Shown: positions 33,221-60,385, counted from the first letter of the stretch. The stretch is 64,000 bases of DNA from a virus (IMGVR_UViG_3300023174_000003:15792-79791), one strand, 5' to 3'. Notes: generated by a model from the sequence alone, not told the origin. Program-made: numbers and translations.

Positions 33221-34924
33221 TCAGTTAGATACTAGGTCCTTCTCACGGATCTGTAAAGCTTCTTGGAATATACCTTGATATTTCTCACGTTCTATAGATG
33301 TCAATGATCTGTTACTTGGTCCTGCAATCTGTTCTACATGCATGGTGCCATTGGATACCTTGAGTTGTATTGTGAATACAGGCTTGTTGTCAACCATACA
33401 TAAGACAATGAATTGTTTCTTAGCTTTTATAAGATTGGCATATGTTGATGATGCACCTACACAATTACGTACTGCTTGCCCCCATTGTGCAAGCTGATGA
33501 GTATCTATGGGTTGAATGAATGTCCAGATCTCATCAGCAAGTTTTACTTTGACAGGAACAGGGAATAAATCCTGTGGTAGTTTTTGGTTTGGGTTACTTA
33601 TCTTCCAGGCTTCTGCTTGTACATGATCATGGAACTCAGTGTAACGCCAACGCCTAGGCGGAGTAAGTTCTTTACCTGCAGCTAATACATTATTAATCAT
33701 GTCCATTGTATCTCTAAATAAATAGAATGTAAGCATATAACAATTCAGTTGATTATCTTTATGCCTATTACTTGGCTTTTCATCTTCTATATATTTGTTT
33801 AGCATATTAAATAATGATGCCACTGGTAGGTTGGTTGCTAGCCATTTCTTTGCTAACGAATCAGTTTTATAATAAGCGATTGAATGGATACGGCCAATAG
33901 ATAAAAACATATTGGTTTGTATTCCAGTCTGTAAATAATCCATAGGGCAGTCAGGATATATATCAAGGATATCTAGAATCCAAGCCAAAGTATGTATAAG
34001 TTTTTTGTGTATAGAACTAATTTCTTTCTTGGACTTAGTGGCTGGATCATTGAACGTATTAATAATTAATTGACATTGCTCATTGATGTAACGTTTAAAC
34101 CATGGCTTACCAAGTTTCTCTTGCATAACAGTAAATGATCTATCTAAATTTTGGGTATACCGTAGCCTTAGTATTTCTATATACAATTCAAAGCTAGGCA
34201 CAATGTTTTGATTCTTTGGTATTGATGTATGATGTAATTCTAATAGTTCATGGTAATTATTTTTAGCCGTATCTATTCTGTCCCATACACCACCATCAGT
34301 ATAAGTAGGTATTGAATTTATAATGGCTTCTCTGAATGGTTGTATTACACTTGGTCTTATCTCTTTACCTTTTGTATTGTATCCTTTGAAGTTACCATGT
34401 TCCCAATAGTGTGATTGACATCCATTAGATATATCTTCTGCTGTTACAAACTTTGTATAGACATTGAACTCTATGCGTCCATACTTTTTGATAGTAGTAT
34501 CTTTTCTATTTATGTCTCTAATGTATACCTGTTTGCATGTAGTTTCTGTATTCTTAAATGCATAAGTAAACCCATAGATATAATCTTCACCTGGGTTAGG
34601 TAACCATGCTGCAATCCACAAGGATTCGTAGTGGTACACAACAGCTTTAAGTTTTGTTGTGGCTACCATATCTTTATCATATGTAACACGACTAAAAGTA
34701 TGATAGCGATATGGAACTTCTTCTTGGTTAATAGCAATTATTGCTGCAAGTAAATTGCTAGGCATAACAATGTGTGCAGGGATAATATCATTAGGCAAGC
34801 CAAGATGAAAGCGTGGTTTCTTAGGCTTGCTTACAGGAGTAGTAGCAGCTTTAGCCAAAGCTTTTAACTTTGGATCATAAGCTAATAGTTCTGTGCGCAG
34901 GTTGGCGGGTAGTTGGAATTGCAT
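33221..34924 (-). CDS. PcfJ-like domain protein
   Basis: C-terminal EFHDHV..QPIDTHQLAQWGQAVRNCVG..Y..FTIQL..QIAGPSN. Confidence 0.75.
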   Translation of the reverse strand: MQFQLPANLRTELLAYDPKLKALAKAATTPVSKPKKPRFHLGLPNDIIPAHIVMPSNLLAAIIAINQEEVPYRYHTFSRVTYDKDMVATTKLKAVVYHYESLWIAAWLPNPGEDYIYGFTYAFKNTETTCKQVYIRDINRKDTTIKKYGRIEFNVYTKFVTAEDISNGCQSHYWEHGNFKGYNTKGKEIRPSVIQPFREAIINSIPTYTDGGVWDRIDTAKNNYHELLELHHTSIPKNQNIVPSFELYIEILRLRYTQNLDRSFTVMQEKLGKPWFKRYINEQCQLIINTFNDPATKSKKEISSIHKKLIHTLAWILDILDIYPDCPMDYLQTGIQTNMFLSIGRIHSIAYYKTDSLAKKWLATNLPVASLFNMLNKYIEDEKPSNRHKDNQLNCYMLTFYLFRDTMDMINNVLAAGKELTPPRRWRYTEFHDHVQAEAWKISNPNQKLPQDLFPVPVKVKLADEIWTFIQPIDTHQLAQWGQAVRNCVGASSTYANLIKAKKQFIVLCMVDNKPVFTIQLKVSNGTMHVEQIAGPSNRSLTSIEREKYQGIFQEALQIREKDLVSN

Positions 34925-34947
34925 GTGAGTGAATAATGAGTGGGATG

Positions 34948-34976
34948 CAGGCAGTTTAACGTCATGCCTGAGGACG
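34948..34976 (-). ncRNA. leader pseudoknot family A, copy 5
   Basis: CGTC-CTCAGGCAT-GACG-TTAAAC-TGCCTG. Confidence 0.65.
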
Positions 34977-35431: not shown

Positions 35432-35644
35432 TCAGACCTCCTGTAGTTGTTGTGTAGCCACAGCCACTGGCTGCTGAAACGCAGAGCCAGGACCATAGCG
35501 TTGGACTAGATCTGGGAATGCACCTAGGATACGTTGACGGTTAGTGGGATCAGCATACCGTAGTGCGTTGGCCATAGTACTGACGAACTTGCCGCCGTAC
35601 TTGGTCATGGTCTCGGTCATGTGATAAATCTCAGTGCTGGTCAT
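35432..35644 (-). CDS. hypothetical protein
   Basis: MTSTEIY..YGGKFV..ADPTNRQRILGAFP; start follows the leader. Confidence 0.65.
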   Translation of the reverse strand: MTSTEIYHMTETMTKYGGKFVSTMANALRYADPTNRQRILGAFPDLVQRYGPGSAFQQPVAVATQQLQEV

Positions 35645-35694
35645 GAGTTGAGTTGCGGTGGGACACAGGCAGTTTAACGTCATGCCTGAGGACG
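35640..35694 (-). repeat. 55-bp exact repeat (leader pseudoknot A copy 6 + spacer + ATG)
   Basis: Identical to 37026-37080. Confidence 0.9.
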
Positions 35695-36788: not shown

Positions 36789-37030
36789 TGGGCAGCATGA
36801 ATCTCTGCTGCTGTAACAGCGGACTCACCTCCGGTGTTGTCATAGAGATACTCAGGTGTTGGGTCATAGCCCGTCACCTCTTCTAATGCATCGATGCAGT
36901 CTGAGATAGTATCCAGCATCCACTGTGGTGCAGAATACATTTGGTCTTTGGCTTCCTCTTGTTTGAGGACAGCGTTCATCTTTTTGATCCAGCGTTCGCA
37001 TGCGCACTCTGGAGTCTTGTCTAAAGTCAT
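36758..37030 (-). CDS. hypothetical protein
   Basis: MTLDKTPEC..; start follows the leader. Confidence 0.6.
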   Translation of the reverse strand: MTLDKTPECACERWIKKMNAVLKQEEAKDQMYSAPQWMLDTISDCIDALEEVTGYDPTPEYLYDNTGGESAVTAAEIHAAHWQQHQELHK

Positions 37031-37080
37031 GAGTTGAGTTGCGGTGGGACACAGGCAGTTTAACGTCATGCCTGAGGACG
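37026..37080 (-). repeat. 55-bp exact repeat (leader pseudoknot A copy 7 + spacer + ATG)
   Basis: Identical to 35640-35694. Confidence 0.9.
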
Positions 37081-37507: not shown

Positions 37508-37528
37508 GGTGTGAATGCGATTGGATGT

Positions 37529-37555
37529 CTGCGTTGTAAGGATGCGCAGCCCCCT
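37529..37555 (-). promoter_or_regulatory. leader element family D, copy 1
   Basis: AGGGGG-CTGCG-CATCCTTACAA-CGCAG. Confidence 0.6.
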
Positions 37556-38327: not shown

Positions 38328-38354
38328 TAGATTCTCCGTTGTAGTTGTGAATGC

Positions 38355-38381
38355 CTGCGTTGTTAGGATGCGCAGCCCCCT
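38355..38381 (-). promoter_or_regulatory. leader element family D, copy 2
   Basis: AGGGGG-CTGCG-CATCCTAACAA-CGCAG. Confidence 0.6.
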
Positions 38382-38397
38382 CGTGTTAGATTAACTT

Positions 38398-38703
38398 GGG
38401 GTGAAGAAGAACCGTGTCAGCCCCTTCATACAAGGGAACCAGGATTTTTACGGTCTCTCCTGGTTGGTAACAGACGAGCTGTGCCACTGATCATGGGGCA
38501 GCTCCTCCCTTATCTTAATTCTTGCAGACATGTATAGGGTCAGGACGCAATAGTCCTTCAGCTCGTGCGGCGGGCGCCCTATGCCTGCTACAACTTTAGG
38601 TTCATCACGCCTAAAGAAGTTTGTTGGAACTCTTCTGAGTTCCTAGACGAGTCAACTCCTGGCCAGGAGGGTCAGCTGAACCCTCCAAAGCATAGCAGGT
38701 TTA
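38398..38703. ncRNA. candidate ~300-nt multi-domain structured RNA
   Basis: No ORF of 60 aa or more in the track; about nine stems, two multiloops and two possible loop-mediated pseudoknots. Confidence 0.6.
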
Positions 38704-38704
38704 A

Positions 38705-38959
38705 CTAATCTTCGATGCCATACTCCTGCTCATATTTAAGCAAGAGTGCGTTTCGGTCAACACACTTCTTGAGGAATTGTGCCAATGGATGCAAAGCATC
38801 CCACTCTAATGCACCGTCTTGCCACTGGAAGTACATCTCCAGTAGCTCGGTACGTTTCTGTTCAATAGACCAATCAACACAAGGGTGTTGAACAGTCGAG
38901 TCTCGCCTGGCAAGCAGACGTGCATCTTTTATGATGCGTTCAACCGTAGCACTGGTCAT
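38705..38959 (-). CDS. hypothetical protein
   Basis: MTSATVERIIKDARLLARRD; start follows a family B leader. Confidence 0.6.
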   Translation of the reverse strand: MTSATVERIIKDARLLARRDSTVQHPCVDWSIEQKRTELLEMYFQWQDGALEWDALHPLAQFLKKCVDRNALLLKYEQEYGIED

Positions 38960-38963
38960 GATT

Positions 38964-39040
38964 GTGAGTAAGCCACACTCAGTGTGTGGCAATAACTGGA
39001 CCAGGGTTTGCACCTGGTCACCCGCTTTAACGGATCAGCT
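38964..39040 (-). ncRNA. tRNA-like T-loop + pseudoknot element family B, copy 1
   Basis: AGCTG-ATCCGTTAAAGCGGGT-GACCAGG-TGCAAAC-CCTGGTC-CAGTT, then ATTGCCACACACTGAGTGTGGCTTACTCA. Confidence 0.6.
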
Positions 39041-39205: not shown

Positions 39206-39286
39206 GCTGTGCAGGTGCCCATCTCCTGCGGACTAGGCAATACTGAGTAGGGGATTCGATCCCCCGGCATCACGCCTGGTACTCAG
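39206..39286 (-). ncRNA. tRNA-like T-loop + pseudoknot element family B, copy 2
   Basis: CTGAGTA-CCA-GGCGTGATGCC-GGGGG-ATCGAAT-CCCC-TACTCAG, then TATTGCCTAGTCCGCAGGAGATGGGCACCTGC. Confidence 0.6.
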
Positions 39287-39463: not shown

Positions 39464-39545
39464 GCTGTGCAGGTGCCCATCTCCTGCGGACTAGGCAATG
39501 ACTGTGGGAGGGTTTGCACCTCCCAACCCGCTTTAACGGATCAGC
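39464..39545 (-). ncRNA. tRNA-like T-loop + pseudoknot element family B, copy 3
   Basis: GCTG-ATCCGTTAAAGCGGGT-TGGGAGG-TGCAAAC-CCTCCCA-CAGT, then CATTGCCTAGTCCGCAGGAGATGGGCACCTGC. Confidence 0.6.
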
Positions 39546-40293: not shown

Positions 40294-40317
40294 GATTTGA
40301 ATGCGAGTGTGTACAAC

Positions 40318-40344
40318 CTGCGTTGCAAGGATGCGCAGCCCCCT
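40318..40344 (-). promoter_or_regulatory. leader element family D, copy 3
   Basis: AGGGGG-CTGCG-CATCCTTGCAA-CGCAG. Confidence 0.6.
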
Positions 40345-40377: not shown

Positions 40378-40496
40378 CTCCCCACATTCTGTTACTTGTG
40401 GGTGGTAGGAGAACAGTCAGAAAATTTGCACCCCAATTAAAGATTGTATAGGGTGTTTTTGTATGTAAAATCCCTACTTAGCCCAAAAATTTAGAC

Positions 40497-40526
40497 AAAA
40501 AAGCCGGGTTTAATCCCGGTGTTTTT
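40497..40526 (-). terminator. intrinsic terminator, possibly bidirectional
   Basis: CCGGG stem flanked by an A6 run and a T5 run, downstream of 40547-40759. Confidence 0.65.
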
Positions 40527-40546
40527 GTAAATTTTAAAAATATTTA

Positions 40547-40759
40547 TTATTGATTTTTACTTTGCTTATATTTTAGTGTTGCATTCATAGCTTTGTTGAA
40601 TGCCTCTTGATCTGGCAGCTCGTAAGCTAGGTGTTTCTTGGATTCTGTTACAAAATCACGTACCTCTAGAGAGTCATGACCTTTTTTAGCCATTTCTACA
40701 GCTTTATTTTTTATTGCCTCTAGTCCTTCTACTCTTTTTTGCCGTGTTCCAGCGTCCAT
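40547..40759 (-). CDS. hypothetical protein
   Basis: 70-aa helical ORF with its own terminator. Confidence 0.6.
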   Translation of the reverse strand: MDAGTRQKRVEGLEAIKNKAVEMAKKGHDSLEVRDFVTESKKHLAYELPDQEAFNKAMNATLKYKQSKNQ

Positions 40760-40850
40760 TTATAGGTAAAATTAGTTTCCTTCTTTTACTATAACCTAGA
40801 TTAATCAACATTAGAATATTTACAGAACAAAATTAAGACAATAAACTCTA

Positions 40851-51592: not shown

Positions 51593-51623
51593 TAGGCTAT
51601 ATTTAACTTAGTTGAATCTGGTT

Positions 51624-54161
51624 ATGCCCTCATATTTACATCTGGCGTATCGCCGTAATGCAAGGGCTGCTGCAAAGAATTACACAGTAAAACCAGCTGA
51701 TAACCTGGAGCTAGCAAAAAGAGCTAGAGAAGATTTTAGTTTCTTTTGTGAGTATGTAGCTAATAAGCCTCCGGCTGCCCACCACAAGGACTGGCACAGG
51801 CACTTTGTGACGGGTGAGGATAGTACATGCCTAAAAGGAATTGCAGGCCCCAACATAGACCTCCTGGGACCTCGCGGTTCAAGTAAGTCGACCACCCTGG
51901 GTTTGTTTACCGCATGGGCCATTGGTGTACATACAACTGCCAAGATGCCTCTGCAAATTCTGTACTTGTCATATACGGTTGAAATTGCGCGTCCTAAGTC
52001 TGCTGCCATTAAACGTATTATTGAAAGCCGTAAATATCAAGAAGTATTTCCTGCCGTAAGACTTCTTAAGAATGTAACAAGTAATGAGTACTGGTCAGTG
52101 GACCATAAATTTGCTGGCATTGAAAGCATCGGTGATGAAATGTTCACCTTATGTGCTGCAGGCTTAAAAGGTTCAGTGACATCCAAGCGATCACACCTTT
52201 GCTTAATAGGTGATACATTGGTATTGACAAATCATGGCAACGTTCCAATTGCCACTATTTATGCAAATCCTGCCGCCTACCAAATTGCTACCAGAAATCA
52301 CACCACAGATCAAGTTGAGTGGAGCAACGTGGCCGCAGTTACAAAACGTAATACCAAAGGAATTATTAGCATTGAAACAGAATGTAGAAATAAAATTCAA
52401 TGCACTCCCGAACACCCTTTCATTACGGCGGACGGAAGGCAAAAAAGGGCAGGAGATTTTAGTCCGGGGGAAACCATTGTCGGATTATCCGACTGGAGAC
52501 AAGTTGACACATTGCCTAAGTTGTCAGGGACCCAAGAAACAAACACAGAGAATTTGCACTACGTGTCACAAGGGAACAGGAGGGTTTGTGGTCCAACTCC
52601 AATGCCCAGTCTGTCAACAGCAATTTTCAATAGTTTCAAATCGTTTAACACAGCGTCTTTACAAAAAGCCTCAAACAATTTGCTGCAGCCATTCCTGCAG
52701 TGGACAAAAAAGAATAACACTAACAAAAAAACCTTGTCGGCATTGTGGCAAACTATTTCAACCTCAGAGTCACTTGTCACAGTGTTGTTCAAAAAAGTGC
52801 GCAGATTCTATGCATGCAAACAAAATGCAAGGAACTGGCAACGCAAATTACAAGCATGGTTGTCGGGCTGGCAAATGGAAAAAATTGCGCCTGTTAATTC
52901 TTGCAAGAGACTGTTCAATTTGTGTTGGTTGCAACACCTTGGAGCAAAAACAATTATTAAACGGCGGGCAACTGAGGACCAATCTTTGTGTTCACCACAT
53001 CGACCACAACCCCTTAAACAATATCCCGCAAAATTTAATCACGTTGTGCAGGCAGTGCCATGTAGCACACCATCAAATAACGGACAAAGCTGGGAGGCCG
53101 TCACCATTTCCAGAGTTGACTTCCTTAGCGAAAGAGAGGAGTTTGTCTATGACTTAGAAGTCAGTCATAGCAGTCATAATTTCATTGCAAATGGCTTAAA
53201 TGTCTTGAATTGTTTAATAGACGATTGTATCAAATCTGCGACAGATATAGCCAATCCTGATATACGTAAGTCTATGCAAGATAACTGGAATGCGGTTATC
53301 TCACCAACTATGTTTGAAGGTGGAAGAGCAATCTGTCTTGGCACCAGATTTAGACACGATGATATACACGCCACCACATTTAATGAGCAAAATAATTGGC
53401 AACAGATTGTATTGTCTGCAATTCAACAAGATCCCAAAACAGGTGATGAGCTTTCCTATTGGCCAGAGATGTGGTCATTGGAATACCTAAAGGAAAAGAA
53501 ACGGCAAGCACCAGTTGCTTTCTCTTTCCAGTACATGAATCAGATTGTCAGACAAGGTGAGTTGTCCCTGGCACCAGAGCTAATAGTTAAAGCAGAAATT
53601 GCAACTGAATTTGATACGCTTGGTATTGGTGTTGATCTATCTGCTGGCATCAAAGAAAAGAATGACTACACAGTAATGATTCTTGGTGGACGCATTGATG
53701 ACCGTATACACATCATTGATTATCGCCGGATGCGTGTCATGGGCAACCTAGAGAAATTAGATGCATTAAAAGAATTGCTTAATGATTGGTCAATTATTGG
53801 TAAAGATGATAACGGTAATTATTTTCCTACCTACGCAACTTGCGATATCTGGTCAGAAGCTGTCCAGTACCAGGCTTCACTCGAAGCTGATTTCAAGAGG
53901 ATTTGCCTTAATGACGAAGGTCTTCACAACCTCTTGTGGCATCCGGTCAAAGGATTCCGTGCAGATAAGCTGGCACGATTCAGAGGAATTATTGGCATGT
54001 TTGAAGAACGAAAAATTATCTTTAACCGTTTCAGGAACTTCACTAATCTCTTCGAGGAACTCACAAACTTCGGAGTAAGTGGCCATGATGACTGTGTCGA
54101 TGCGTTGGTTTGGTTGGTAAATGGACTTACCAAAAAAGGTAAGCTTCAGTTTGATTACTGA
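51624..54161 (+). CDS. terL: terminase large subunit, intein-containing
   Basis: Walker A GPRGSSKST; Walker B LCLIDD split by the intein; LGTRFRHDD; RNase H-like GVDLS..NDYT..HDDCVDAL. Confidence 0.92.
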   Translation: MPSYLHLAYRRNARAAAKNYTVKPADNLELAKRAREDFSFFCEYVANKPPAAHHKDWHRHFVTGEDSTCLKGIAGPNIDLLGPRGSSKSTTLGLFTAWAIGVHTTAKMPLQILYLSYTVEIARPKSAAIKRIIESRKYQEVFPAVRLLKNVTSNEYWSVDHKFAGIESIGDEMFTLCAAGLKGSVTSKRSHLCLIGDTLVLTNHGNVPIATIYANPAAYQIATRNHTTDQVEWSNVAAVTKRNTKGIISIETECRNKIQCTPEHPFITADGRQKRAGDFSPGETIVGLSDWRQVDTLPKLSGTQETNTENLHYVSQGNRRVCGPTPMPSLSTAIFNSFKSFNTASLQKASNNLLQPFLQWTKKNNTNKKTLSALWQTISTSESLVTVLFKKVRRFYACKQNARNWQRKLQAWLSGWQMEKIAPVNSCKRLFNLCWLQHLGAKTIIKRRATEDQSLCSPHRPQPLKQYPAKFNHVVQAVPCSTPSNNGQSWEAVTISRVDFLSEREEFVYDLEVSHSSHNFIANGLNVLNCLIDDCIKSATDIANPDIRKSMQDNWNAVISPTMFEGGRAICLGTRFRHDDIHATTFNEQNNWQQIVLSAIQQDPKTGDELSYWPEMWSLEYLKEKKRQAPVAFSFQYMNQIVRQGELSLAPELIVKAEIATEFDTLGIGVDLSAGIKEKNDYTVMILGGRIDDRIHIIDYRRMRVMGNLEKLDALKELLNDWSIIGKDDNGNYFPTYATCDIWSEAVQYQASLEADFKRICLNDEGLHNLLWHPVKGFRADKLARFRGIIGMFEERKIIFNRFRNFTNLFEELTNFGVSGHDDCVDALVWLVNGLTKKGKLQFDY
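52200..53210 (+). mobile_element. intein (337 aa) in the terL Walker B
   Basis: Block A CLIGDTLVLT, block B IQCTPEHPF, block F VYDLEV..HNFIANG, terminal VLN followed by Cys+1. Confidence 0.92.
52234..53157 (+). CDS. Zn-finger/HNH endonuclease in the +1 frame inside the intein (alternative start TTG 52477)
   Basis: CxxC..CCSxxC repeats; RDCSICVGC..LCVHHIDHNPLNNIPQNLITLCRQCHVAHH. Confidence 0.85.
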   Translation: MATFQLPLFMQILPPTKLLPEITPQIKLSGATWPQLQNVIPKELLALKQNVEIKFNALPNTLSLRRTEGKKGQEILVRGKPLSDYPTGDKLTHCLSCQGPKKQTQRICTTCHKGTGGFVVQLQCPVCQQQFSIVSNRLTQRLYKKPQTICCSHSCSGQKRITLTKKPCRHCGKLFQPQSHLSQCCSKKCADSMHANKMQGTGNANYKHGCRAGKWKKLRLLILARDCSICVGCNTLEQKQLLNGGQLRTNLCVHHIDHNPLNNIPQNLITLCRQCHVAHHQITDKAGRPSPFPELTSLAKERSLSMT

Positions 54162-58395: not shown

Positions 58396-60385
58396 GTGTT
58401 TATTGATAGCTAGTTCAGATCCTGGTAGGTGTGTCCTTTTAGGATTTGGTAAATAGCTACGTGATTACAGTTAAATTTTTTAGCAATCTTTCTATAAGAA
58501 AGGCCTGCTTCTTTAAGCGATTTAATTTGTACCACGTCTGCCGAAGAAAACTTTCTTAAAGATTTTTTCGGTTTCCCTTTACTGGCAAAACCGTTGTTCT
58601 TGTAGCAACCAGTCTCCCAAGCCCTAAGTAAGTTTTCTTGTTTAGTTACGACCTCAAGATTATCAACACAGTTATTACGCTTGTTGTTGTCCTTGTGATC
58701 GACCTGAAGTGAAAAATTATGAATGCCGTGAGACTCAAGGTTTAAATCAAGAAAAGCAACAGCCATTAAGACATGCAAATGAAAGCGTTTTCTTTTTCCA
58801 TTAACAAGAATTGAAACTCTGTCATATGCACTGGTTGAGCTGATTGGAAGAGGTATAAATTCTTCCTTATTGTTTGAGTCAAGTTTTTTCTCAAACGCCC
58901 TGCCCTCCCTGGTCAAGTAAAGGTTACCAAATCCTAATACAAGTTTGGGTTCCATGTTGTTGATAAACAATTTCCCAAACTATAACATACCTCAACTGAA
59001 CGCTCAGCGTTGTCACCTCACCGAGCAATCGATGAGTGAAAACCGGATGAATTCAGGGAAACCCTAACGTAAAGCCGAGGGCAATCCTGAGCCAAGCCAA
59101 TCAAGTTCGTGATTGGAAGGTGCAGAGACTACTGGGGGTAACACGCTCTTGTTACGTAATACCAGATTTAGCGTCCGGCATCCCACGTGGATGAAGAGAT
59201 AGTCCACCCCCTTAAGAGATTAAGGACCAGGAGAACGATTTTCCGAAGATTCTTGGTGCCGAACTGTATCGGCCCCACCCCGCATACATTTGCGAAATGG
59301 CTGTTGAGCCCGTGGTGGTCCATGACTTCACCCGCCAACCTGGCCAAACCGTTCAACTAGATCGCTATAAGTTCTGGGGTACTCCTGGTACTAAGGACAG
59401 CCGCGAACGGATTTCCGATCAAACCATCGGTACCGCCAATAGCCGTAACATCACCAAGGAAAAAGTCCTTGTGGTGCTTAAGGAATACACTGGTCCCGCT
59501 GACCCGTCTGATCCTACCCAACCTTCGACCTTTAAGATTGCACGGGAAACCCTGATTACCGCCCAACGTCTCCTTCTGGATACAGGTAATCTGAATATGT
59601 TCCACCAGTCCATTGGTTCACTGACCCTCTTGGACGACTACCGCCGGTGGCGCGACCGTGTGTTTATTGACGAACTTGCCAAGGCAGAAGCCAATGGTGA
59701 AGCTTCTACCACCCAAGGTGGTTACTACTTCCCTGCTGGTAAGACCAAGAACGCCTCTGGTCAAATTGCTTACACCACTGCTGAGTACGCAGCACAAGTT
59801 CAGCAATTCCACGTTTCAACTGACTTGTTGAACGTTGTTAAGGATCTACGCAAGCGTAACGTTCCTACCTTCTCTGATGGTCTGTATCGTTGCATTTGCG
59901 ATCCTACTTTCATGATGCACCTGCGTCGTGACGCTGACTTCCGTGAAATCGCCCGTTACTCTGGTAACCCTGGTCAAGGCATGTACATGGGTAACCCCAT
60001 GATGCCTAACAACGCTAGCTTCTATCAAGGTCCCCAAGCTGGTCAAGGTTACTTCCTTGCTGGCGAACCTGTGATGCCTACTGGCGTTCAGTTTGAAGGT
60101 GTGAAGTTCTACGAATCAACCAACTTCCCCACCAAGACCATTGCCGCTAGTTTCACTGATAGCCCCTCTTACACCAACCAAGAAGTTGCCCAAGGTTTCT
60201 TCTTTGGTCCCCAAGCAATTGGCGTTGGCGTTGGTGGTCCTAATGCTCAAGTTCTCATTAACAACAATGATGACTTTAGCCGCTTCATCATCTTGATCTG
60301 GCAACTGTATGCTGGTTTTGAAATCCTCAACAAGGACTTTGTTACCAACGGTTACAGTTTTGTCAGCGATGATGGCATTCTTTGA
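58396..60385 (+). CDS. major capsid protein, spliced: exon 1 58396-58407, exon 2 59234-60385 (387 aa)
   Basis: GGAGG RBS, then GTG TTT ATT GAT | AAC GAT TTT CCG gives MFIDNDFPKILGAELYRPHP; body has PGQTVQLDRY..LKEY..FEGVKFYEST..DDFSR, HK97/N4-gp56-like. Confidence 0.85.
58408..59233 (+). mobile_element. group I intron (trnL/IC3-like core) in the major capsid gene
   Basis: 5' exon ends in U and intron ends in G; IGS CGTTGTCA 59008-59015; P AATTCAGGGAAAC, Q AATCCTGAGC, R GTGCAGAGACT, S AAGAGATAGTCC; P3 CCGGATG/CGTCCGG. Confidence 0.92.
58410..58970 (-). CDS. intron-encoded HNH homing endonuclease (antisense) with C-terminal HTH
   Basis: HLHVLMAVAFL..VDHKDNNKRNNCVDNLEVVTKQEN; SYRKIAKKFNCN. Confidence 0.88.
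   Translation of the reverse strand: MFINNMEPKLVLGFGNLYLTREGRAFEKKLDSNNKEEFIPLPISSTSAYDRVSILVNGKRKRFHLHVLMAVAFLDLNLESHGIHNFSLQVDHKDNNKRNNCVDNLEVVTKQENLLRAWETGCYKNNGFASKGKPKKSLRKFSSADVVQIKSLKEAGLSYRKIAKKFNCNHVAIYQILKGHTYQDLN

Follow-up and report, generated by a model that had tools for sequence, protein, structure and literature searches.

To our knowledge, only a small number of structured RNAs that are encoded by phages and have a tertiary fold are understood; the pRNA of phi29 is the classic example, and GOLLD and ROOL still have no known function. GOLLD and ROOL are approximately 600 to 800 nt long, and their assemblies use RNA–RNA contacts such as kissing loops. A cryo-EM report (PMC12286853) describes both RNAs as forming homo-oligomeric complexes. 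Mining of IMG/VR gave 8495 anonymous "DNAVirus_X" candidate structured RNA motifs of at most 151 nt (PMC10690425). Here we describe an RNA locus of a cyanophage that has likenesses to each of these systems. Similar to phi29 pRNA, it is phage-encoded, single-copy, within the same size range (approximately 115 to 175 nt for the two), and built round a three-way junction, and two of its loops carry complementary sequences (five pairs) that covary between phages. Unlike in pRNA, the 5' end lies in a separate hairpin (P1) and is not paired with the 3' end, and, instead of the protein-primed machinery, the phage has a polymerase of family A along with a primase-helicase and a classical large terminase, which includes an RNase H-like nuclease domain; the pRNA model (RF00044) was not among the matches to the window at E up to 10. 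The RNA is like GOLLD (RF01998) and ROOL (RF03087) in being a phage- or prophage-associated structured RNA of unknown function that matches no protein-coding need, but its two modules are only approximately 115 and 190 nt long, no tRNA adjoins it, its oligomerization is hypothetical, and neither model matched the window or its homologues. It shares with the DNAVirus_X motifs the data source and covariation evidence in phage intergenic regions, and may itself be among them; that catalogue, unlike the present work, contains no analysis of function or architecture (PMC10690425). The RNA belongs to no known RNA family or architecture, and no new mechanism is shown.

The window, that is, the whole 64,000-nt stretch of DNA analyzed, covers bases 15792 to 79791 of a viral record that is 79.8 kb long and has direct terminal repeats. 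The proteins encoded in it include a family A DNA polymerase, a primase-helicase, and an intein-containing large terminase; the polymerase is 65% identical to its counterpart in Synechococcus phage S-EIVl, the closest cultured relative, whose source was a high-arctic lake. In the terminase gene (849 aa, 51612–54161, plus strand), the intein splicing domain (PF14890) lies upstream of the nuclease domain. The RNA locus is located in an arm of small minus-strand early genes, approximately 2 kb from an AT-rich divergence point (~40400–40850), and has a GC content of approximately 52%, against 40% in its flanks (Table 1). The stretch 38398–38712 is probably a plus-strand non-coding RNA gene composed of two independently evolving folded modules, and we infer that it acts in trans as a folded particle.

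Table 1. Features of the RNA locus and its immediate neighbors, in window coordinates
Feature	Position	Strand	Evidence or remark
Flanking early gene, 64 aa	38133–38327	−	Outside RNA
Repeated 34-nt leader/promoter-like motif, one copy	38348–38381	−	Neighbor, outside RNA
Candidate promoter: TG (38384–38385) and −10-like hexamer TAGATT (38387–38392)	38384–38392	+	
Module 1, 115-nt core RNA motif (P1, P2, P3, P4, L1–L3 kissing helix)	38398–38512	+	Covariance model R2, 124.6 bits
P1 hairpin	38398–38404/38417–38424	+	A38419 bulged; 5 of 7 pairs changed on both sides
L1 kissing strand ACCGT	38411–38415	+	Partner 38450–38454; covariation
Three-way junction P2–P3–P4	38432–38511	+	Covariation
P2	38432–38436/38507–38511	+	97.6% paired, 3 compensatory pairs
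P3	38437–38444/38458–38465	+	95.6% paired, 3 compensatory pairs
L3 kissing strand ACGGT	38450–38454	+	Partner 38411–38415; covariation
Conserved junction strand, ~10 bases	38466–38475	+	Unpaired
P4	38476–38486/38494–38504	+	97.3% paired, 7 compensatory pairs
P4 loop with self-complementary hexamer TGATCA (38488–38493)	38487–38493	+	Alignment A8
T-rich linker between modules	38512–38523	+	Read from sequence
Module 2, second three-way junction and hairpins	38524–38712	+	Covariance model R3, 225.8 bits at 38513–38712
Junction E1–E3	38532–38584	+	Covariation; two hairpin loops conserved
E1	38532–38540/38576–38584	+	
E2	38542–38546/38553–38557	+	
E3	38561–38566/38570–38575	+	
Closing helix, possible, unresolved	38584–38590/38693–38699	+	Competes with 38524–38527/38585–38588
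E4 hairpin	38594–38600/38610–38616	+	Covariation
E5 hairpin	38626–38632/38637–38643	+	Conserved in close clade only
E6 hairpin, 5-bp stem, loop GGCC	38656–38669	+	100% paired, 4 of 5 pairs compensatory
E7 hairpin, loop with self-complementary hexamer CAGCTG	38670–38682	+	
Flanking early gene, 102 aa	38705–39013	−	Stop codon abuts RNA; outside RNA

The minus-strand early arm of this phage carries many repeated intergenic structures. The 34-nt motif, read on the minus strand, occurs at 37522–37555, 38348–38381, and 40311–40344; it has a 5-bp stem and a near-invariant loop, an AT-rich box precedes every copy, and early transcripts may have it as their 5' leader or promoter. Two relatives (L005 and L026) have no such motif between the RNA and the 64-aa gene. 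A repeat of approximately 55 nt precedes minus-strand genes at 34922–34976, 35640–35694, and 37026–37080, two of the copies being identical; it is also found just upstream of module 1 in the loci of group C (for example, L061:11051–11090), with its conserved core directly adjoining the RNA's promoter region. An element of approximately 52 nt occurs at 38988–39039 and 39494–39545 and, in S-EIVl, at L077:1055–1130 (minus strand). Its loop, GTTTGCA, is invariant and its stem covaries between both window copies and the S-EIVl copy, so that it looks like another conserved structured element, the strand of which is undetermined. An identical pair of 36-nt direct repeats, 258 nt apart, lies at 39206–39241 and 39464–39499.

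The earlier note had proposed from inspection a novel, highly structured non-coding RNA of approximately 300 nt, to be checked by folding controls, homologue collection, and comparison with Rfam. The 306-nt stretch 38398–38703 folded on the plus strand with an energy of −116.3 kcal/mol, compared with −96.0 ± 5.4 kcal/mol for 100 dinucleotide shuffles, none of which was as good (z −3.75), and the first of these checks was thus passed. The minus strand of the same stretch also gave a strong value (z −3.46); folding energy alone therefore cannot pick the strand. Protein-anchored searches of viral and metagenome contigs gave close homologues in two viral records and approximately ten lake-metagenome contigs, with 94 to 97% identity in the element and 85 to 88% in the flanks. 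The region is non-coding because 2-nt indels among the homologues exclude a reading frame. Its nucleotide diversity was 0.022, whereas the genes on either side had values of 0.169 and 0.182, or 0.09 when only second codon positions were counted, so that the element is approximately 8 times less variable, although this could partly reflect recent spread instead of constraint. The close homologues alone contained just two compensatory pairs. A long closing helix (38396–38418/38592–38614), obtained with RNAalifold from these near-identical sequences, was rejected: diverged homologues show P1 and E4 as local hairpins, and module 1 also exists without the partner strand.

No match to the region was found among GenBank phages by blastn and megablast, and scanning for exact patterns (a 25-mer, a hairpin loop, and the E7 hairpin) returned two close relatives, three chance matches inside coding sequence, and nothing else. 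Covariance model R1, built on 38396–38616, gave weak but significant matches elsewhere in related records, which were limited to the first 115 nt, and a degenerate pattern of the conserved loop and junction led to 18 viral contigs, all true homologues. Homologue sets gathered by pattern in this manner are biased samples. The resulting module 1 alignment (A8) contains 19 sequences, 17 of them distinct, in which pairing is found in 95.9% of cells and compensatory change in 21 of 36 pairs; when the partners were slid by 1 to 3 columns as a control, 37 to 50% of cells paired (maximum 49.5%). The loop of P1 holds a conserved purine run together with the 5' kissing strand. The kissing helix is paired in 100% of the 17 distinct sequences with compensatory change in three of its five pairs, and it occurs in three versions, ACCGU/ACGGU, GCAGC/GCUGC, and ACUGC/GCAGU. 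As judged from this covariation, the complementarity between the L1 and L3 loops is confirmed as a real tertiary contact, while pairing within or between molecules remains undetermined. The hexamer in the P4 loop is kept in groups A to C, and the group D loop contains GGCC instead. Every record with a match to module 1 contained exactly one copy. P1 to P4, the L1–L3 kissing helix, and the conserved junction strand together satisfy the definition of a family for module 1.

Searches of the window with Rfam 15 on both strands gave nothing at the gathering score and only chance-level matches at E up to 10, the best of these scoring 19.3 and 17.4 bits where the gathering scores are 60 and 65; the homologues of S-EIVl, group D, G003, and G005 gave nothing at E up to 1. 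The proposed novelty of the RNA was thus borne out with respect to Rfam. Its exclusion as a tRNA, tmRNA, or intron also held. ARAGORN found no tRNA or tmRNA gene in the whole window, and no tRNA was adjacent to the RNA in any of 35 loci scanned. In phages that lack the RNA, homologues of the 102-aa protein terminate at the equivalent residue, which rules out an intron, and the group I intron model RF00028 matches elsewhere, at 58983–59226 on the plus strand in the late arm (88.7 bits, E 2.5e-21). That intron is flanked by ORFs of 186 aa (minus strand) and 362 aa (plus strand).

A compact junction with a pseudoknot and approximately ten conserved unpaired bases could also be a plus-strand cis-acting sensor (riboswitch-like) or a self-cleaving ribozyme that controls downstream read-through. 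By the criterion for a riboswitch or 5' leader, P2 in group D is directly followed by TTTTT and then by genes on the same strand, and in the window a T-rich tract follows P2; this linker is possibly a leaky terminator tail, a function that is only inferred. The neighbors in the window and in groups B and C, however, are on the other strand, and downstream of the element in groups A to C there is no sense-strand feature, only the antisense of an early gene. No match to a riboswitch or ribozyme family was obtained even at E up to 10, and no alternative expression-platform fold was seen. We therefore regard a sensor or ribozyme as unlikely.

Module 2 is supported in an alignment fitted to model R3: pairing extends to 95.2% of cells, and compensatory changes occur in 20 of 35 pairs; the slid-partner control reached at most 55.3%. 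The E6 loop is identical in all five lineages read. The E7 loop differs between lineages: CAGCUG is shared by the window clade and L076, CUCGAG by L057 and S-EIVl, and UUGCAA is found in G003. All three hexamers are self-complementary, but E7 itself is supported, by comparison of these sequences, only as a short stem. One observation in E4 counts against the explanation that we favor: the pair 38598/38612 is A-T in the window and G-C in L076, whereas the other members of the window clade have A-C, so that most of the clade carries an internal mismatch on the plus strand. The definition of a family is met for module 2 by E1 to E3 with their conserved loops, the GGCC loop of E6, and the self-complementary loop of E7. 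Alignment and model searches thus show, for both modules, a conserved secondary structure and absence from Rfam.

All of the stems listed in the earlier note are present in the sequence at the positions given there, and most of them now have comparative support. P1 (GGGGTGA/TCAGCCCC), the loop complementarity ACCGT/ACGGT, P3 (AACCAGGA/TCCTGGTT), P4 (GAGCTG/CAGCTC, which is really 11 bp long), the three-way junction E1–E3 (ATAGGGT/GCCCTAT), and E4 (CTTTAGG/CCTAAAG) all covary in diverged homologues, and helix P2, which closes the first three-way junction, can be added to them, being absent from that list. Three further stems survive in part. The inner GGT/ACC of GGAGGGT/ACCCTCC, a stem that extends E7, is kept elsewhere, but its outer part competes with the covarying E6 (CTCCT-GGCC-AGGAG). 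GGAACTC/GAGTTCC (E5) forms a hairpin within the window's own clade, but L076 has a different, 9-bp hairpin in this position. The closing helix CCTGCTA/TAGCAGG is conserved in the clade and partly in L076, but it never covaries; both its halves are absent together from L057, S-EIVl, and G003, and it remains unresolved. The suggested long-range pairing of TTCAGCT (38557) with AGCTGAA (38674) is not supported, as the complementarity is missing in L057 and S-EIVl.

Module 2 was detected with model R3 behind module 1 in the window clade and likewise in G025, and alone in G003, G005, and S-EIVl. The S-EIVl copy, at KJ410740.1:40133–40335 (84.6 bits, E 4e-20), lies within an unannotated gap of 467 nt and shares its strand with the genes on either side. 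A pattern scan gave 13 more viral contigs with module 2, all confirmed, and the homologues of this module now comprise 20 other viral records and S-EIVl. The modules are fused in the window clade and G025, apart within one genome in G027 and G030, or alone, and L066 and L076 differ cleanly by the gain or loss of module 2 behind module 1. Because the modules are found apart in other phages, the locus is a composite of two modules and not an indivisible 300-nt unit; the proposal of a structured non-coding RNA stands in that it is non-coding and covaries, but it has to be divided.

Neither module is universal, which counts against the explanation that we favor. Module 1 was present in all four records of at least 88% completeness that were found via a neighboring protein (G000, G001, G006, and G011), in one of four near-complete records found via module 2, and in one more record that is 83% complete. 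The tally of seven of seven complete genomes with module 1 is biased, as most records were found through module 1 itself, and it is absent from the complete genomes G033, G037, and G038. In S-EIVl, no module 1 was detected in the 25.9-kb early/replication region (L077, filters off) or in the whole record; a marginal match of 10.8 bits was rejected as a member of a different repeat family. Searches of bacterial genomes gave only one phage contig binned into a MAG and one chance match in a glutamate-dehydrogenase-like coding sequence. The RNA occurs in a lineage of freshwater cyanobacterial viruses. More distant phages with the 102-aa gene have no long gap after it. In one relative (L034:290–690), an additional ORF of 64 aa and a shorter spacer rich in hairpins take the place of most of the RNA locus; the 47 nt shared with the window give the upstream gene its stop codon in a different frame (TAA, not TAG).

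This patchy distribution could also be that of a selfish or recently spread insertion cassette, the identity of which comes from recent transfer and which brings the phage little benefit. The element forms a sharp island of identity (94 to 97%, against approximately 87% in the flanks), its presence varies, as seen in the module 2 indel and in L034, which has lost most of the element and keeps only 38660–38706 behind a different gene, its position and orientation vary, and several metagenome contigs break inside it. Nevertheless, there was no sign of terminal repeats, target duplications, or a mobility gene next to it, and compensatory change over deep divergence implies selection on the fold. 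A mere cassette is thus improbable, although a cassette and a function can coexist.

The position of module 1 relative to genes differs between lineages. In groups B and C, the element adjoins the GP88–PolA–SSB gene cluster. In group C, a convergent minus-strand gene overlaps the 3' third of module 1, and its TGA stop codon falls inside the TGATCA of the P4 loop; the RNA and protein genes overlap tail to tail by approximately 35 nt (L058:1587–1592 and other group C loci). This overlap, and the fact that plus-strand read-through in the window is antisense to the 102-aa gene, would suit an antisense RNA that regulates, by base pairing, either the convergent early gene or the repeated leaders. 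We consider such a regulator quite improbable, because the overlap is absent from the window clade and group D, the conserved parts are structural and offer no free seed, and orientation is not conserved.

A −10-like hexamer of the form TAnnnT, with four or five of six matches to TATAAT, ends 5 to 7 nt before P1 in 18 of 18 homologues and is kept although the upstream sequences fall into approximately nine unrelated contexts; in the window, this box is TAGATT preceded by TG, in agreement with the upstream signal that had been noticed at 38384. Promoters with only a −10 element are the usual type in cyanobacteria. A start site near 38398–38400 is predicted, an inference made without transcript data. 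Module 2 loci have no consistent −10 box of their own. On the strand opposite P1, five group C loci (L061, L067, L072, L073, and L074) carry a near-consensus sigma-70-type promoter (TTGACG/TTGTCG, 18 nt, TATAAT/CATAAT) that overlaps P1; its −10 box overlaps that of the RNA and it points at the GP88–PolA–SSB genes. By inference, the promoters of the RNA and of the mRNA may compete in group C.

These overlapping boxes, the adjacency to the GP88–PolA–SSB cluster, and the perfect DNA palindromes formed by E6, the E7 core, and the P4 loop could alternatively mark a site that acts as DNA, either overlapping divergent promoters or operators or a replication origin, the repeats being protein-binding palindromes. 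This possibility is very hard to sustain, since it leaves the G-U-compatible substitutions, the covarying loop–loop helix, and the three-way junctions unexplained, and since the spacing between the minus-strand −35 and −10 boxes ranges from 17 to 23 nt between groups.

The paired cells of module 1, when read on the plus strand, include 49 G-U and only 7 A-C combinations, the latter mostly at helix ends. In P4, U38482–G38498 is a wobble pair in 17 of 17 sequences, and its neighbor 38483/38497 is G-U in 12 of the 17, the window's clade having a G-G mismatch there; one P3 pair alternates between C-G and U-G. Since these wobble pairs would be A-C mismatches inside helices on the minus strand, the RNA would be read from the plus strand, and the comparison shows that the wobble pattern fits this strand only, in agreement with the orientation first proposed. 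The neighboring genes in groups B and C lie on the other strand as in the window, whereas in group D, module 1 is on the same strand as the flanking genes; the strand of the RNA is thus constant while its orientation relative to the neighboring genes varies between lineages. The description of the RNA as antisense to its neighbors consequently holds for the window but is not a family trait, as module 2 in S-EIVl and G005 also runs in the same direction as the early genes between which it lies. The least tenable alternative is a cis-acting element of the minus-strand early mRNA (a processing site, stabilizer, terminator, or untranslated region), because, even though the RNA fills a gap between two minus-strand genes in an arm rich in repeated intergenic structures, the minus strand folds well too, and module 2 can be sense between genes, the P3 and P4 wobbles would become mismatches, the strand of the RNA does not change when gene orientation flips, and no T-run follows any minus-strand hairpin.

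Module 2 lies on the same strand as tRNA-Leu(UAA), approximately 3 to 6 kb away, in all six loci that hold this tRNA, which we count in support of the two-module, trans-acting RNA. The tRNA gene itself is found in the early arm of many relatives (L063:4799–4884, L074:4738–4813, L090, L093, L095, L096, L100, and L102). We infer that the host RNA polymerase would start at approximately 38398–38400 from the −10-only promoter and continue through module 1; part of transcription may stop at the T-rich linker, and the remainder would read on through module 2, which lacks a consistent promoter of its own. The RNA, the target of which is unknown, would then act in trans in early infection as a compact folded particle and not as part of an mRNA, and would bind protein and/or its own copies through the self-complementary hairpin loops and the L1 and L3 loops. 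In S-EIVl and G005, module 2 could simply be part of an mRNA because of its sense direction between early genes and the lack of a −10 box of its own. In the absence of transcript data, a discrete transcript, its ends, its abundance, and its expression are unproven.

Three of seven loops (E7, E6, and P4) are self-complementary, for which we roughly estimate a chance probability of 0.01. This number of loops suggests RNA–RNA association, as a hypothesis only; the self-complementary loops could also be a by-product of spacer-less inverted repeats. No clear signal of genome-wide avoidance of 4-base palindromes was found, and we draw nothing from it. The 7-nt loops of E7 and P4, each with a 6-nt self-complementary sequence, are similar to those of retroviral DIS-type dimerization hairpins (PMC7357161), and the change of the E7 loop between lineages without loss of self-complementarity recalls dimerization hairpins. 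The DIS type, however, is an element of viral RNA genomes, whereas the present hairpins are in a small RNA of a DNA phage, for which no dimer has been shown. It is possible, but doubtful on present evidence, that the RNA is a self-assembling particle in which P1, P2, and P3 stack into a rod, its L1 and L3 end loops pair between molecules, and the loops of P4, E6, and E7 add contacts, giving rings, filaments, or cages. If so, it would be a small cyanophage counterpart of the phi29 pRNA rings or of the ROOL and GOLLD assemblies, with a particle role in the phage life cycle, for example, in scaffolding, sequestration, or protection.

Comparative support is unusually clear for both modules, each a compact new RNA fold, and includes a kissing helix that covaries and loops that change yet remain self-complementary. 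The modules belong to a widespread, little-studied lineage of freshwater cyanophages related to S-EIV1. The presence of module 2 in cultured S-EIVl makes its expression, structure, partners, and necessity directly testable. If the RNA is only a stable by-product, it would still be a new family for RNA catalogues; if it self-assembles or disables a host factor, it would be a new kind of RNA tool in phage–host biology.
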